From UHGV virus genome UHGV-0180032: 64,000 nt of DNA. One strand, 5' to 3'. Positions 2-38,032 of the stretch are shown piece after piece; within the stretch, counting starts at the first letter, position 1, and each line of letters starts with the position of its first letter. A program made the translations under genes and the position numbers. The notes below the pieces were generated by a model, which saw only the letters and a program-made list of their open reading frames with translations, was not told the DNA's origin and did no database searches. This stretch comes from a virus.

Positions 2-964
2 GATGATTTCTACAACACCTTAGGCGTTGGGTTCTTGTCAATGGATGAGGTGCACGAGCATTTCCATCTGGTGTACATGGCAGGAATAATGCTCAACCCA
101 CCACCGTCTGTTGAGATGTCTGCGACGTTACAGCCGGGTGAATCAAAAGCGTTTTTAGCCGAACGGTATCGAGAGCGTTTTCCACAAGAGTCACGTATAT
201 TCATTCCGATTATTCCTGCTGTGCATGTTAAAGCGTTGTACTACAGCATTGAGAATAAACGGTTTGCGTGGTGGGCGAATAAGATGACGCCGTATAACCA
301 CAAGCTATTCGAAGGTAAGTTAATAAGTGAGAACATGCACTTATCTTACGCGGATATGGTGTGGGACGTCATCGAGCGAACGTATTTGGCGAGTTACCAG
401 CCTGGTCAGAAAGTGTTGGTGTTGTTTGCAACCGTTGCGATGTGTGAGTTCTTTACAGAGTACGTGCGAGAGAAACTGGCACAGTCTGATAAGTTCCACG
501 CGTTGATGGTTGCGAAATACAACGCGGGGGATTCGTATGACGACTTTATTCAAGCGGATTTCTCGATTTCAACACCAGGGAAAGCAGGCACTGCGGTTGA
601 CAAACCGGGGTTGGTTCACATGTACATTACCACCCCTGTGGAAGACCAGCAGTTAAACCGTCAGATGGCCGGTCGTCCGCGTAAGATACTTCACAACGAT
701 TGGGGTGAACTCGATCCCGTTGTGTGGTTATTCCATTCACTCTCGATAGGGAAACACTGCAATTACTTGAACGCGCGTCAGAAGTCGCTGAGTGATTCCG
801 TGTTGTCGTTTAAGATAGCCTCTTCACCGTATGTTGTAAGGAAAACCAATGTTACTACCGCCGCAGCCGACCGAGCCAGCAGCACCGTATGCCGGGCTGA
901 ACTTAGCAAGTTTTCTCGAAAAGGTTTTAAAGGCATACCCAGACGTCGAAAACGTCGTCGATAA
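2..964 (+). CDS. SF2 helicase, C-terminal domain (5' partial; gene begins upstream of window)
   Basis: Frame is open from window edge with no upstream stop; helicase motif VI-like QMAGRPRK preceded by motif V-like STPGKAGTAVD; last ~115 nt overlap next ORF in another frame. Confidence 0.55.
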   Translation, partial: DDFYNTLGVGFLSMDEVHEHFHLVYMAGIMLNPPPSVEMSATLQPGESKAFLAERYRERFPQESRIFIPIIPAVHVKALYYSIENKRFAWWANKMTPYNHKLFEGKLISENMHLSYADMVWDVIERTYLASYQPGQKVLVLFATVAMCEFFTEYVREKLAQSDKFHALMVAKYNAGDSYDDFIQADFSISTPGKAGTAVDKPGLVHMYITTPVEDQQLNRQMAGRPRKILHNDWGELDPVVWLFHSLSIGKHCNYLNARQKSLSDSVLSFKIASSPYVVRKTNVTTAAADRASSTVCRAELSKFSRKGFKGIPRRRKRRR

Positions 965-1232
965 ACTGTGTACCGACCCAACAATGTCCGTAGCGTTCCA
1001 CTACTACATGGTAACGGAACACTTCGCCGGTATGCAGATTTTCCAACGTGGTAAATGTTATTACATTACGCGTAACTCCAGTATCCGCAATACCTCGTCT
1101 TACGAGCTTTACAGCTGGGTACTGTGGTCTGAAAACCCTGCGGGTAATATTGACGAAAACCCGAAGGTGGCTTATCGACTATACTCTGAGAAATGGCACA
1201 GTTGGGTAGCCGTTCCTCACGATAGCAATTAA
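849..1232 (+). CDS. hypothetical protein (127 aa)
   Basis: ATG at 849 directly after in-frame stop TAA 837-839; SD-like AGGA 7 nt upstream; followed by terminator hairpin. Confidence 0.5.
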   Translation: MLLPPQPTEPAAPYAGLNLASFLEKVLKAYPDVENVVDKLCTDPTMSVAFHYYMVTEHFAGMQIFQRGKCYYITRNSSIRNTSSYELYSWVLWSENPAGNIDENPKVAYRLYSEKWHSWVAVPHDSN

Positions 1233-1244
1233 AAAGTACAGAAC

Positions 1245-1277
1245 GGGTGTATATTGTGTACACCCTTTCTTTTTTTG
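1245..1277 (+). terminator. rho-independent terminator
   Basis: stem gggtgta/tacaccc followed by tttctttttttg. Confidence 0.6.
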
Positions 1278-1293
1278 TTAAAGGAATATTAAA

Positions 1294-1866
1294 ATGTCTC
1301 GTCGTAAGAAGAAACCCGCTTATAACCCACGTGCTCTGGCGAAAAAAGAACTTCGCGATAGCGTGAAATCCGTGTATAAACTACTGGTTATCTTTGAAGA
1401 ACAGATGAAGATTCTGGCGGAGCGTATCGACAAAGAACGTGAAGTCCTGGAAGCTCTGGAGGAGCCAGAATACAAAGCCTTCGCTATTAAAGCGTTGGAC
1501 GAAGCCAAAGCTGCGTTCGTTGGCCTGATGGCAGAAGGGAAAGAAAAACTGGGTGCAAAACTTATTGAGATCGATAAGGTTGCAACCAATGCAAAAACCA
1601 TGCTGGAAAACAACAGCTGGGCGTCTGTGAAAGACGAGTTTAGCGTGGAAAGCATGAACGTAACCACGTTAGAGACCGAAGCTGTGTGGCTGGGTAAAGA
1701 TATCCAGGGCGCTGCCATTGAAATCCTGTCGCTGTATAACGGCCGTGCTGATTTTGTAAAACGTGCGATGCACCAGGGCCACACCTTCGCAGAAGCCTAC
1801 GAACTGCTTCAACAAGCTGAAGCCGCAGTAAAACAACCCGACACTGAAGTCGTTACCGAGGTATAA
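1294..1866 (+). CDS. hypothetical protein (190 aa), probably highly expressed
   Basis: ATG with AGGA upstream; host-optimal codons (ctg, cgt, gaa, aaa). Confidence 0.75.
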   Translation: MSRRKKKPAYNPRALAKKELRDSVKSVYKLLVIFEEQMKILAERIDKEREVLEALEEPEYKAFAIKALDEAKAAFVGLMAEGKEKLGAKLIEIDKVATNAKTMLENNSWASVKDEFSVESMNVTTLETEAVWLGKDIQGAAIEILSLYNGRADFVKRAMHQGHTFAEAYELLQQAEAAVKQPDTEVVTEV

Positions 1867-1868
1867 AG

Positions 1869-3827
1869 ATGTCTGATTCATTAGACCAACGTCCTGGCAA
1901 TGGACGCCGTCGTCTACAGACGGAACCTGTACAGGTTCACATCCCTGAGCTCGACTACAGCACTATGTCAGCGGACGATGGGATTATGGCCATTAAACGT
2001 GCCAACCCACAACTGTCCTTTGCAGAAGCTGAAGAAGCGTACAAAGGACTGAATGTGGTGAAAGAAGAACCTATTCTTCAACCCCCTACGTTTGAAGAAG
2101 AACCCCTTCCTGAATCTCTACAGACCGAACTGACTGGACATCCTGTCATTGCTGAAGTTGTAGAGCGTAAAGAAGTGGTGGTTGAAGAACGTAAGCCGGA
2201 ACCTGTCCTGGTGGCGGAGAAAACGCGGGAAGAATATGTTCCACCGGCTCCTGAACCTCAGGCACCTGCGGCGGATCATGAACCAGAAGCGACACCCGCA
2301 GTAAAAGAGAAAGCTTCTACCGATCGTATCAACTTCGGCGATCAGCCCGCTCACGAAGAGTTCTCGGAATTGGAAGAGGATTCAGAAGCGGCGATTATGG
2401 CCAGCTTCCGTACGCTTATCGGTCTTTGCCAGGACCCGAACCTGGTTGGAAACGATCTGAAGAAATTCTTCTCAAGTATCCCAACGAGCAAAGACGGACG
2501 TCTGTTGTTCAAGTCTGAAGAACAGCGCGATTTGTACGAACGTCTGCGTCGTGCTTTGAACATGACGCCACCGCGTTTGCAGAATAACCTGCAAGCATTT
2601 GATGTGGCACTGTCACGTGACGACACAGCGTGGGAGCAGCGAGTACAGTTGCCGGGGATGAATAAACCGGTAGGTCTGATCAGTACCCGTCTCAACCAGC
2701 AGACAGGTGCAATTGCAGCCCTGCGCCGCCGCCGTAAATCCGGTATTCCTAACTGGGTATGGTTGCCTGCTACGGGTATCTTCGTCGGCTTCCGTGCACC
2801 GCTGGAACGTGAGATTTGTGACTTCGATATTGAACTGGCGTTAGAAACCGCGAAGATTGGGATGCAGACTTACGGTCTGATGCTCTCTGCATCTTCTGGT
2901 GTGTACTTAAGCCACATGATCGAATTTGCCTTACGGTTTGTTACCGATTGCAGCCTAGACTGCGAAGGTAACGACATGAAGACCGTACTGATGGATACCA
3001 TCGACATTGCAGACTACTGGTTACTGTTAATCGGTGTTATGCAGGCGAAGTTCCCAGGCGGTTTACCGTGGACGCTGATTTGTGGTCACGAAGGTTGTGG
3101 TCATCAGGAAGACGTTCGTCTGAACCTGGCACGTTGTATCCGTATGGGGACTTCTCTGTATACGGACATTCAGCGTAACCTGTGGGCACTTCAACGCGGT
3201 AAAGACGACGCGACTATTACCCGTGCTGACCAGCGTAAGTTTGTTGAAGAACACATCAAAGACCCATCGGCGATTTTTGAACAAGACGGGATTATCGTTA
3301 AGTTCGGTCGTTCTACCCTGGGTAAATTCTTCGACAACACCGAACGTTGGATTGAAGAAACCAACGCGGCCACGACCTCTGCTTTAGCAGAGAAGGGCAC
3401 CGAGCGTGAGCGTGAAGACCACTTACGCTTAACCGCTGAGGCACGTCGTCTAACTCGTTATGCGCACATGGTTGAATCTATTACCGTTATGGAAGAAATC
3501 TACGACGGTGAAGAATCCCACGAAGAACCTATCGTAGAGAAAGATTACGATAAGATCGTCCAGATGCTGGAAGAACTGTCGTCCGATCGTAAATACGTGG
3601 CTAACTTCGAAGGCGCTATTGCGACGTACAACGACCGTAGCCGCCTGGCGGTGTTCGGGTATATGGGCCAACGTTGCCCAGCGTGTGGTAAAGCCGATGA
3701 AGGTGAGAAAGAAGGCGTGTATCGCGGTATCGTAACGATTTCCCCGGACCGCGTTTTTTTCGAGCTATCTCGAGTGGTGTTCGAGATTCAGCGGTTTATG
3801 AGGGATCAATTCGGCGTTACTGGCTAG
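1869..3827 (+). CDS. hypothetical protein (652 aa) with acidic/Pro-rich linker and C-terminal Cys clusters (CGHEGCGH, CPACG)
   Basis: ATG 1869 with GAGG upstream; long ORF; stop TAG 3825-3827. Confidence 0.75.
   Translation: MSDSLDQRPGNGRRRLQTEPVQVHIPELDYSTMSADDGIMAIKRANPQLSFAEAEEAYKGLNVVKEEPILQPPTFEEEPLPESLQTELTGHPVIAEVVERKEVVVEERKPEPVLVAEKTREEYVPPAPEPQAPAADHEPEATPAVKEKASTDRINFGDQPAHEEFSELEEDSEAAIMASFRTLIGLCQDPNLVGNDLKKFFSSIPTSKDGRLLFKSEEQRDLYERLRRALNMTPPRLQNNLQAFDVALSRDDTAWEQRVQLPGMNKPVGLISTRLNQQTGAIAALRRRRKSGIPNWVWLPATGIFVGFRAPLEREICDFDIELALETAKIGMQTYGLMLSASSGVYLSHMIEFALRFVTDCSLDCEGNDMKTVLMDTIDIADYWLLLIGVMQAKFPGGLPWTLICGHEGCGHQEDVRLNLARCIRMGTSLYTDIQRNLWALQRGKDDATITRADQRKFVEEHIKDPSAIFEQDGIIVKFGRSTLGKFFDNTERWIEETNAATTSALAEKGTEREREDHLRLTAEARRLTRYAHMVESITVMEEIYDGEESHEEPIVEKDYDKIVQMLEELSSDRKYVANFEGAIATYNDRSRLAVFGYMGQRCPACGKADEGEKEGVYRGIVTISPDRVFFELSRVVFEIQRFMRDQFGVTG
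3755..3787 (+). other. candidate -1 programmed ribosomal frameshift signal (slippery T TTT TTC plus hairpin)
   Basis: Heptamer 3755-3761 in register with zero-frame codons TTT TTC; 5-nt spacer; 7-bp stem atctcga/tcgagat 3767-3787; -1 frame open from 3707 to 4249. Confidence 0.35.
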
Positions 3828-3940
3828 ACCCGAGAGAGATTCCTTCAGACCACGTCATTAACACGCTTAAGTTAGACACCACCTCTTTATTCAAGCAACG
3901 CAGTACCCGCCCTATCACTTATCAGGAAGCGCATGACGAA

Positions 3941-4249
3941 TTGTTAGGTGCCTACGATTTGTCGATAGGGTTGGACACCGGTTCAAAGCACGTCGGTTTG
4001 TCAGATTTCGAAAACCCGGAATACGGGAGCTTACACGAAATCTGGATGGAAGTTTATTTGCGCGAGCAGATAAATGAACATTATCGACTCTCGTTTGACG
4101 AGTGGCTTAATCGTCCTCGTTGGGAGATTATGATGATGCTCCGTGTGCTTAATCGTCGTAAAGCGTCGATTAAGAAAATCATGAACGATGTTGCTGGCAG
4201 TGACCCAGAACTGCAAAATCTTGAGAAAGAGCTTAAGTTGAAAGGTTGA
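3941..4249 (+). CDS. open frame with no credible independent start; possible C-terminal extension of the 1869..3827 product via -1 frameshift
   Basis: Stop-to-stop open frame 3707..4249 in -1 frame relative to upstream gene; first in-frame start is TTG 3941 with no SD; ends immediately before terminator. Confidence 0.35.
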   Translation: MLGAYDLSIGLDTGSKHVGLSDFENPEYGSLHEIWMEVYLREQINEHYRLSFDEWLNRPRWEIMMMLRVLNRRKASIKKIMNDVAGSDPELQNLEKELKLKG

Positions 4250-4251
4250 AT

Positions 4252-4295
4252 TTAAGGGAGTCTATTAAGACTCCCTTAGCTTTTTCTTTTTTTTG
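4252..4295 (+). terminator. rho-independent terminator
   Basis: stem taagggagtct/agactccctta followed by T-run. Confidence 0.65.
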
Positions 4296-4328
4296 CTTTG
4301 GTATGAACCCCTTGTATTGGAAAAGGCT

Positions 4329-37021: not shown

Positions 37022-38032
37022 ATGAACCGTCTTGATATTGATGTGGTACCCAGTATTACTGACCGTTCGTTGTATCAAAGGTCAGGACTACAAAAACTCA
37101 TCACTTTTGAGAATAATACTGGTGTGCCAATTTACGTCACTGAAACCAGTGGCGGTAGCTTTATTTTAACTCCGTCCAAAAGCCCGGCTGATGAGCATGG
37201 GGTTGTTGTTTATGTAACGTATCAATCGTTCGGAAATCTGGCTAACCTGAACGGGTTTGCAGAAGTCTTACCAGAAAAACAATTCACTAAATTTTGTGCA
37301 GATTTAAAGGAGAAAGGAGAGGTCACACTCCGATACGTGGTTGACGATATCGGTGCTTTATTACGTGGGGACTTGGTTGTATTGAAGCAGCTAGGATTCG
37401 CATTTTCAATTACACCAGTTCGATTAGAAAGTACGCCACCGAGCGTAAGGCCAGGAGGTGAGAGAACTGAATTTACATTAGGTGTTATTGTTGTGCAGCG
37501 TTACGACGATCCCGAACTATATCGTTGGATTAGATTCTACGGAACGCGCATGGAAGTACAACCGATACTATCGCGGTATTACGAACCGGGTGTGTATATG
37601 GTAATCGGAGGAGGAGACAAAGTAGAAGGGAGTAGGATGATTCACTTCGAGTTCGATGACTTATTGTCACCGTTCCGTGTTTTTAAAGATAAAGAAACAG
37701 CCACTGCGTTTCGATGGCAAGAAACGTTACCGGATATTCACGAGATAAAGGAAAAGCTGGAAAGTCAATACAGAGAAAAATTAGAAAGTTTGGATTCGGC
37801 AAAAGACAAACTGGAAATAGAACACAAAAAACAACTACAGAATTTGGCTTTGGAAAAGGAGCGTTTGACTCTAGCGTATAAACAACAAGAACTAGAAGCA
37901 AAGTCTCGGGCAGAGGCACGAAAAGAATTCTACGAGACTCGTTCTTACATTCGTAAAGATGGGTCAGACCTATTTAAATCAGTCCCTGCGTATCTGGCGG
38001 CGGGTGTCGCATTTATAGGGATGCTAAAGTAA
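37022..38032 (+). CDS. hypothetical protein (336 aa) with C-terminal coiled coil and hydrophobic tail
   Basis: AT-rich, rare-codon-rich ORF; heptad-like EKLESQYREKLESLDSAKDKLE; C-terminal AYLAAGVAFIGMLK. Confidence 0.65.
   Translation: MNRLDIDVVPSITDRSLYQRSGLQKLITFENNTGVPIYVTETSGGSFILTPSKSPADEHGVVVYVTYQSFGNLANLNGFAEVLPEKQFTKFCADLKEKGEVTLRYVVDDIGALLRGDLVVLKQLGFAFSITPVRLESTPPSVRPGGERTEFTLGVIVVQRYDDPELYRWIRFYGTRMEVQPILSRYYEPGVYMVIGGGDKVEGSRMIHFEFDDLLSPFRVFKDKETATAFRWQETLPDIHEIKEKLESQYREKLESLDSAKDKLEIEHKKQLQNLALEKERLTLAYKQQELEAKSRAEARKEFYETRSYIRKDGSDLFKSVPAYLAAGVAFIGMLK

Follow-up and report, generated by a model that had tools for sequence, protein, structure and literature searches.

A candidate −1 frameshift site at a conserved T run in a core gene of phiKZ-like jumbo phages

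We have analyzed a 64,000-nucleotide (nt) stretch of viral DNA, UHGV virus genome UHGV-0180032 (the window), and in particular a large gene of 652 codons that is followed by a small open reading frame (ORF) lying in its −1 frame. The window phage is a jumbo phage of the phiKZ-like, nucleus-forming family Chimalliviridae, and the large gene is the Chimalliviridae core gene cg18 (Goslar gp081, phiKZ gp077, RAY gp267), where it is named 'hypothetical protein' (supplement of PMC10299810). A run of T nucleotides near the 3′ end of this gene very probably mediates recoding into the −1 frame. It is likely that this occurs by −1 slippage of the ribosome at the run, so that proteins of 652 and 793 amino acids (aa) would be made from one mRNA. 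We infer that the shift is ribosomal, and judging from the nucleotide pattern of the site this is favored over slippage during transcription.

The anatomy of the site was first described in a sequence-only reading of the window. Its elements, comprising the 652-aa ORF, a run of seven T nucleotides (T7; runs of other lengths are denoted in the same way), a slippery heptamer in register, the −1 frame and a terminator beginning at 4252, were all confirmed on the window sequence, and are collected in Table 1. The 0-frame codons through the run are GTT (3753–5), TTT (3756–8) and TTC (3759–61), which places the heptamer in X_XXY_YYZ register with the 0 frame. The T7 at 3754 is the only run of seven or more A or T nucleotides inside a gene in the whole window, the other 11 being intergenic. 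The −1 frame is open for 181 codons at 3707..4249, bounded by TGA at 3704–6 and TGA at 4247–9, and the calculated probability of such an open frame arising by chance is ~1.7e-4 (3/64 stops per codon). It has no ATG, GTG or TTG ahead of the TTG at 3941, which is codon 61 after the site. This TTG is the conserved Leu codon of the sequence YQEAHDELL, within a conserved domain, and the nearest AGGA lies 13 nt upstream of it. The earlier view that the frame has no credible start, the first being this TTG without a Shine-Dalgarno (SD) sequence, held. No promoter-like or terminator-like site was found within 3827–3941. The extension itself stands in our reading, and its proposed length of about 165 residues becomes 162 new residues, which replace the 21-residue 0-frame tail and give a net gain of 141. 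The predicted trans-frame product thus comprises residues 1–631 plus 162, a total of 793 aa, with the junction SPDRVFF/RAISSGVR. Predicted peptides of the window extension are AISSGVR, DSAVYEGSIR, YWLDPR and EIPSDHVINTLK; those of the phiKZ trans-frame protein are FPHLIPIDMLSTFFYFGGLEVK, which spans the junction, and LEATFTEDSGHILHPNFGYDK. None of these is preceded by a start codon.

Table 1. Coordinates of the putative frameshift site and associated features in the window
Feature	Position	Strand	Remarks
0-frame ORF, 652 aa	1869..3827	+	0-frame codons start at positions divisible by 3
T7 run (3754–3760) then C; slippery heptamer T_TTT_TTC (3755–3761)	3754..3761	+	In register with Phe630-Phe631
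Predicted −1-frame extension, 162 codons plus TGA	3761..4249	+	tblastn, phrog_7580, predicted structure
Putative dual-coding overlap	3762..3827	+	21-codon 0-frame tail ELSRVVFEIQRFMRDQFGVTG then stop; −1 frame RAISSGVRDSAVYEGSIRRYWL
38 −1-frame codons between the 0-frame stop and the first possible start	3827..3940	+	Strong purifying selection in the −1 frame only
Hairpin, ATCTCGA (3767–73) with TCGAGAT (3781–87)	3767..3787	+	5 nt after the heptamer
Intrinsic terminator, 12-bp stem (4252–4279) and T tract	4252..4294	+	Ends the transcription unit right after the −1-frame stop

In the mechanism that we propose, most ribosomes would read through to the TAG at 3825–3827 and make the 652-aa protein. 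A fraction would move one base back on U_UUU_UUC, the two tRNA-Phe molecules on UUU-UUC re-pairing to UUU-UUU, and these shifted ribosomes would read the −1 frame to the TGA at 4247–4249. Their product would share the first 631 residues, and would then carry a linker of ~25 residues and a helical domain of ~135 residues instead of the 21-residue tail. In Escherichia coli U_UU.U_UU.Y belongs to the most efficient class of heptamer (H_HH.U_UU.Y), U_UU.Y ranks second among tetramers, and insertion sequence (IS) elements make use of U_UU.U_UU.C (PMC4066793). The pattern of the site fits tRNA-Phe slipping into the −1 frame on the host ribosome, which would be portable across the many host genera involved. 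The efficiency of frameshifting is probably low, because no conserved stimulator was seen.

The −1 frame is conserved from the slip site onward in close relatives. A tblastn search with the −1 translation, using a query that begins directly after the heptamer, gave matches from residue 1 in 70 phage records, 62 of them with at least 80% coverage. In SPN3US the −1-frame match (from 37958) overlaps that of the upstream protein (ending at 38021) by 64 nt, the same as in the window. The stretch GGAC.G.GTTTTTTTCG.GCT.TCTCG.GTGGTGT..GAGAT is near-invariant in eight genomes (43–100% protein identity). The annotated starts of the small ORF vary; the ATG used for SPN3US corresponds to TTA in the window, and the GTG used for Asesino to ATT.

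We examined frame-specific selection by comparing the window with seven relatives over a gap-free region. Upstream of the run most variation occurs at the third positions of 0-frame codons (0.42, versus 0.17 and 0.15 at the others), and the first 30 nt after the heptamer are almost invariant at every codon position (0.00, 0.12 and 0.18). Across the whole overlap the ratio of nonsynonymous to synonymous variation (pN/pS) is ~0.7 in both frames, with pS lowered to 0.33. We read the combination as a signature of dual constraint. In the 38 codons between the TAG at 3825 and the TTG at 3941 variation is concentrated at third positions of the −1 frame (0.55, versus 0.11 and 0.21), and the pN/pS of 0.17 in the −1 frame compares with 1.14 (0 frame) and 1.91 (+1 frame). 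This indicates that these codons are translated in the −1 frame without a preceding start. The codon-position pattern changes from 0-frame to −1-frame across the slip site. Directly after the slip the −1 frame reads CGA, CGT or CGC, all encoding Arg, where the 0 frame has Glu, Val or Ala. Similarly, the −1-frame sequence SIRRYWLD is kept through synonymous changes that alter the 0-frame tail (QFGVTG, QYADIG, QFANIG).

The arrangement extends far beyond these relatives. We compared 19 lineages, i.e. the window and 18 further ones that are 16–62% identical: SPN3US, Asesino, Moabite, PDCC-1, PhiPA3, Vibrio JHP1101, JM-2012, Xoo-sp14, RSL2, Psa21, phiKZ, 201phi2-1, Goslar, RAY, Eowyn, RP12, Yong-MS32 and LucasX. 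In all 19 the large gene is followed by a small ORF in its −1 frame, and this frame always opens 8–190 nt 5′ of a T5–T8 run (8–60 nt in most lineages). The run occupies the same alignment columns throughout, at an invariant Phe-Phe (F630/F631); the following L633 is invariant in the seven proteins aligned first and is the consensus in the 19-lineage alignment. Measured from the run, the extension is 149–176 codons long in 18 lineages (LucasX not included), and the 0-frame tail varies from 8 to 37 codons. In phiKZ the 75 codons after the run include no ATG, GTG or TTG, and the annotated ORF 076.4 (80 aa) covers just the distal half of the extension. The first possible start in RAY is at codon 69 after the run, and some lineages have an ATG or GTG 15–40 codons after it. 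In the Pseudomonas and Xanthomonas group the −1 frame carries the motif SRL.IDL.DPNGH..FG, which lies upstream of most of the annotated starts. The sequence-only reading had proposed that a frame without its own start is entered through a −1 shift on the run. That proposal is strongly supported by the retention of the run, the −1 relation and the extension length in 19 lineages, and the comparison with related genomes that it suggested turned up neither stops in the −1 frame nor a missing T run.

Searching 1.84 billion representative proteins with the extension using phmmer returned short stand-alone calls only, with scattered N-termini that are often inside the conserved domain. Two longer matches (P0038 and P0039) were considered as fusions and rejected as garbled assemblies. 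No genuine in-frame fused homolog was found in this search or in a word search of 5.8 billion proteins, which suggests that both products are kept. Directly after the run the 0-frame tail is conserved as F-F-T/E-L-x-R/Q, with synonymous use of ACC, ACT and ACG, and the −1 frame there varies (YP, YF, YV, YA or RA) and is linker-like. From these sequence patterns both products appear to be kept, and we infer that both isoforms are functional.

The run is selected at the level of its nucleotides. Among 18 lineages surveyed the P-site codon is TTT in 17 and CTT in one, and the A-site codon is TTT in 12 and TTC in six. The base preceding the P-site codon is T in 15, and the complete heptamer is T_TTT_TTY in 15. 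The other Phe-Phe pairs in the same genes all start with TTC (14 of 14). In the GC-rich phages Xoo-sp14 and RSL2, TTT is found elsewhere in the gene in 0 of 14 and 0 of 18 cases, yet they have T7 and T8 at the site. Judged on codon usage, the run is thus maintained as nucleotides, against the Phe codon bias. The pattern is that of the X_XXY_YYZ rule, with X and Y fixed as T and variation at Z alone (T or C). Both this retention against codon bias and the purifying selection in the −1 frame ahead of any start lend further weight to the proposed −1 shift.

Two genomes depart from the common layout. In the Enterobacteria phage SEGD1 (KU726251; positions 596..2983 of locus L029) the large and small ORFs are annotated as one 795-aa protein. 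We considered this as a natural fusion and rejected it; the frame is moved by a divergent segment immediately 5′ of the run, 19 nt long (18 nt in SPN3US), and the T7 (2494–2500) is unchanged. The 19-nt stretch shifts the frame early, destroying the conserved GIVTISPDRV motif. The fusion is probably an assembly error; if real, it would be a natural 'fused-only' variant. The second case is the Xanthomonas phage RTH11 (locus L021), with T7 at 2237–2243 compared with T8 in its nearest relative LucasX (1729–1736 of locus L030). The upstream ORF of RTH11 shares its frame with neither the 0-frame tail nor the extension, and the annotated coding sequence (CDS) continues in the third frame. We considered the T7 as a hint of transcriptional slippage. 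However, LucasX has T8 and the normal layout, so a homopolymer miscall is likelier.

The same 793-aa fusion would result from transcriptional slippage, in which stuttering of the phage RNA polymerase on the A7 template run would give some transcripts an extra U. We think this unlikely, and the observations that weigh against a ribosomal shift are best considered together with it. The conserved element is a homopolymer (T5–T8), as transcriptional slippage requires. Three lineages lack a perfect heptamer, having G_TTT_TTT (PhiPA3), A_TTT_TTT (Psa21) and A_CTT_TTT (JHP1101); at these sites either slippage of a single tRNA or tolerance of a mismatch in the P site would be needed. Over the second half of the overlap there is no clear constraint on either frame. 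Moreover no conserved ribosomal stimulator was found. The geometry of slippery site, spacer and stem-loop had been described as canonical. A hairpin is indeed present at the 5-nt spacing, with 8 bp if a G-U pair is counted; folded as 31 nt it has a free energy of −9.7 kcal/mol (z = −1.9), which 10 of 200 shuffled sequences equal. It is, however, weak and not conserved beyond the closest relatives. In its 76-nt context the folding z is +0.6, and the equivalent hairpin in SPN3US and Caitlin has only 5–6 bp and −5 to −6 kcal/mol, with z > 0. The hairpin shows no covariation or compensatory changes in relatives. Folding of the 75 nt downstream of the run at 23 loci gave no consistent 3′ structure across the family (z mostly −1 to +1.5), and no conserved SD-like element was seen upstream of the run. 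The window hairpin is real but modest, and is possibly a weak local stimulator.

The absence of any other intragenic A/T run of this length in the window can also be counted in favor of transcriptional slippage. So can the fact that phiKZ-like phages transcribe with their own divergent multisubunit RNA polymerases. A further point is that UUUUUUU is avoided in all frames of E. coli genes, possibly owing to slippage (PMC4066793). Against this, JHP1101 retains only T5, frequent use of TTC shortens the run, its register is fixed, and the only 'off' run length (RTH11 compared with LucasX) looks like a miscall. Furthermore, known bacterial transcriptional slippage takes place on runs of ~9 nt, and runs of 5–7 (T5–T8 in the family) fall below this, although that threshold comes from bacterial RNA polymerases and may not hold for phage multisubunit enzymes. 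The topic is reviewed in PMC5009743. Another explanation is that these are two ordinary genes, the small ORF being translated from a start that is non-canonical or peculiar to a lineage, or else by termination-reinitiation at the TAG at 3825, with the run kept for Phe-Phe only. Public records do list two separate CDSs (e.g. SPN3US_0039/0040, Asesino gp56/gp57 and 201phi2-1 gp136/gp135), there are the ATG or GTG codons soon after the run in some lineages, and the window has an ATT codon at 3839–3841. Yet the position homologous to this ATT is GTT or ATC in relatives, and the window, phiKZ and RAY have no ATG, GTG or TTG for 60–75 codons that are nevertheless conserved and under −1-frame purifying selection. 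A requirement for Phe-Phe does not account for the run when such pairs elsewhere in the genes are TTT-first in none of 14 cases and GC-rich phages devoid of TTT elsewhere keep T7–T8 here, and the −1 relation and constant extension length survive insertions and deletions in the 0-frame tail. We therefore regard two independent genes as very improbable. Lastly the gene might be broken, by mutation or by sequencing error in the homopolymer, the true gene being one ORF of 793 codons with T8. Homopolymers are prone to errors, SEGD1 is annotated as a single 795-aa ORF, and RTH11 has an anomalous run length. But the same out-of-frame layout is present in independent genomes from many laboratories and in metagenomes, the 0-frame tail after the run is itself conserved, with synonymous variation in its Thr codon, the SEGD1 fusion arises from a garbled segment upstream with the run still T7, and no genuine in-frame fusion was found among the 1.84 billion representatives. 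This explanation has almost no probability left, and is effectively refuted by the conservation data.

The signal is unannotated across the phage family, phiKZ included. All of the 20-odd GenBank records inspected have two separate CDSs, except for the SEGD1 artefact. The frameshift is not described in the full-text literature that was searched, which excludes most subscription journals, so an earlier report is possible; papers on the core genome, Asesino, Goslar and recoding (reviews) make no mention of it. Recoding at this site would mean that one of the ~68 core genes shared by nucleus-forming jumbo phages (phiKZ, PhiPA3, 201phi2-1, Goslar, RAY, SPN3US) is a recoded gene. It would merge ORFs that are now separate and 'hypothetical', such as phiKZ gp77 with ORF 076.4 and SPN3US gp39 with gp40, and would fix many mis-called N-termini. 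The core protein would exist as two isoforms, in a ratio set by a slippery site that has apparently been kept throughout the history of the family. The family would also offer a clean natural experiment, either on stimulator-poor frameshifting at U_UUU_UUY with ribosomes from many host genera or on slippage by the unusual phage RNA polymerases.

The 652-aa protein is predicted to have a disordered N-terminal region of ~170 aa and a structured core at ~290–600, with conserved cysteines C405, C410, C603 and C606. Residues 64–168 of the protein, in its N-terminal region (window 1869–2400), are Pro/Glu-rich and predicted to be disordered, with a predicted local distance difference test score (pLDDT) of ~30. 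The length of this region differs greatly among relatives, in which the whole protein ranges from 476 to 705 aa, and the disordered region is absent from the Vibrio and Pseudomonas orthologs. In the model of the extension ~25 linker residues of low confidence lead into an all-alpha domain with a long helix at its end, and the conserved motifs of this domain are Y.EA..EL..AYD, SLYE.W and FLDRPR. Both parts match PHROGs families of unknown function only (phrog_8054 for the large protein and phrog_7580 for the extension), and neither has a sequence match in Pfam, NCBIfam or PDB. A Foldseek search with the model of the large protein against viral models returned orthologs and a 'Baseplate hub assembly protein, bacteriophage T4-like' (E 1.8e-5), and a few GenBank records give large-protein homologs similar names (baseplate or hub assembly protein). 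In phage T4 gp26 and gp51 (locus L031, 7803–9229) are both PF12322 proteins. They have a similar 2+2 arrangement of cysteines, and their C-terminal C.ECG...VHVI.GLKEFFKLL recalls CPACG...GIVTISPDRVFFELS; the final EFFKLL resembles RVFFELS at the shift site. Homology to gp26/gp51 remains a lead from Foldseek and record names that Pfam and hhalign did not confirm. None of 12 family members matches PF12322 even at E <= 10, and hhalign against gp26/gp51 in several set-ups gave probabilities of 0.7–31%, covering the CxxCG motif only. It is doubtful, and in our estimation rather improbable, that cg18 (phiKZ gp77) is the counterpart of the T4 gp26/gp51 chaperones with the −1 frameshift as a functional equivalent of the G/GT frameshift. 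If it were, the two isoforms, short and long, would cooperate as an assembly chaperone, and the helical extension would bind a second partner. To our knowledge the G/GT-type frameshift, near-universal in tail assembly chaperones, has not been recognized in T4-like or phiKZ-like myoviruses.

The setting of the gene is conserved. Its orthologs are phiKZ gp077, PhiPA3 gp074, 201phi2-1 gp136, Goslar gp081, RAY gp267 and SPN3US_0039, and the 652-aa protein has 54–64% identity to those of Erwinia phage Asesino and Salmonella phage SPN3US. The phage collection searched contains no genome nearly identical to that of the window. The gene order is that of SPN3US and Asesino, i.e. helicase, two small ORFs, the large gene, a small ORF, a further ORF and the RNA polymerase beta subunit; in all three genomes a DNA polymerase gene follows on the opposite strand. 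In the window an ORF at 849–1232 overlaps the 3′ end of the helicase gene (35–964) by 116 nt in the +1 frame, and overlapping annotations after the helicase are found also in SPN3US (113 nt) and Asesino (83 nt). The overlap could be a mis-called start or another genuine overlap. Directly 3′ of the terminator (window 4296–4307) is CTTTGGTATGAA, conserved in SPN3US and Asesino as GCCTTGGTATGAA. This motif, which contains TATG, may be a phage promoter or start-site element. The sequence TTGGTATGAA is not enriched in the window, with 7 matches at <=1 mismatch versus 5 expected. A 98%-identical copy of the 652-aa protein (P0003) is encoded by a contig of 221,768 bp that was deposited under the name Salmonella enterica serovar Agona. 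The window phage or a near relative is therefore present within a bacterial genome assembly, probably as a carried or contaminating jumbo phage, and the Agona-labeled contig points to Salmonella as the host.

Among known recoding systems the closest in logic, by analogy, would be gene 10A/10B of phage T7. In T7 (and T3) G_GUU_UUC is located a few codons before the 0-frame stop, with no classical pseudoknot nearby (PMC5009743). Both cases combine a U-rich heptamer near a stop codon with what would be a minor, C-terminally extended isoform beside the major product. However, 10A/10B is a capsid protein with an extension of 53 residues, whereas the predicted cg18 extension has 162 residues with a folded domain, and 10A/10B depends on a distant 3′ element, with none comparable identified for cg18. 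Unlike that of 10A/10B, the cg18 site has been kept throughout a family whose hosts belong to many genera. Tail assembly chaperones use −1 frameshifts at G_GGA_AAG in lambda G/GT and at T_TTT_TTG in P2 E/E′, the latter also a T run. The cg18 site would resemble G/GT in being an ancient, family-wide −1 shift that gives short and long forms with a common N-terminal part. It differs in that cg18 is not between the tail tube and tape-measure genes, its neighbors being the helicase, small ORFs, RNA polymerase beta and DNA polymerase, and in that its protein is ~4 times larger than gpG. There is no tail assembly chaperone match in Pfam or NCBIfam, and the Foldseek hits to such chaperones are not significant (E 0.7–3 with probability <= 0.1).

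IS3/IS911 orfA-orfB and dnaX tau/gamma share with the proposed mechanism X_XXY_YYZ tandem slippage on bacterial ribosomes. They have strong conserved stimulators, an SD-like element upstream and a 3′ hairpin, pseudoknot or three-way junction, whereas none is conserved at cg18; and the dnaX frameshift shortens its product, unlike that of cg18. In genes that use transcriptional slippage (Thermus dnaX with A9, Shigella mxiE with T9, IS elements, paramyxovirus P/V and potyvirus P3N-PIPO) a homopolymer likewise opens an overlapping frame and gives two isoforms. The T5–T8 runs of cg18 are shorter than those of the bacterial examples, and their register and the pattern at the Z position fit ribosomal slippage better.

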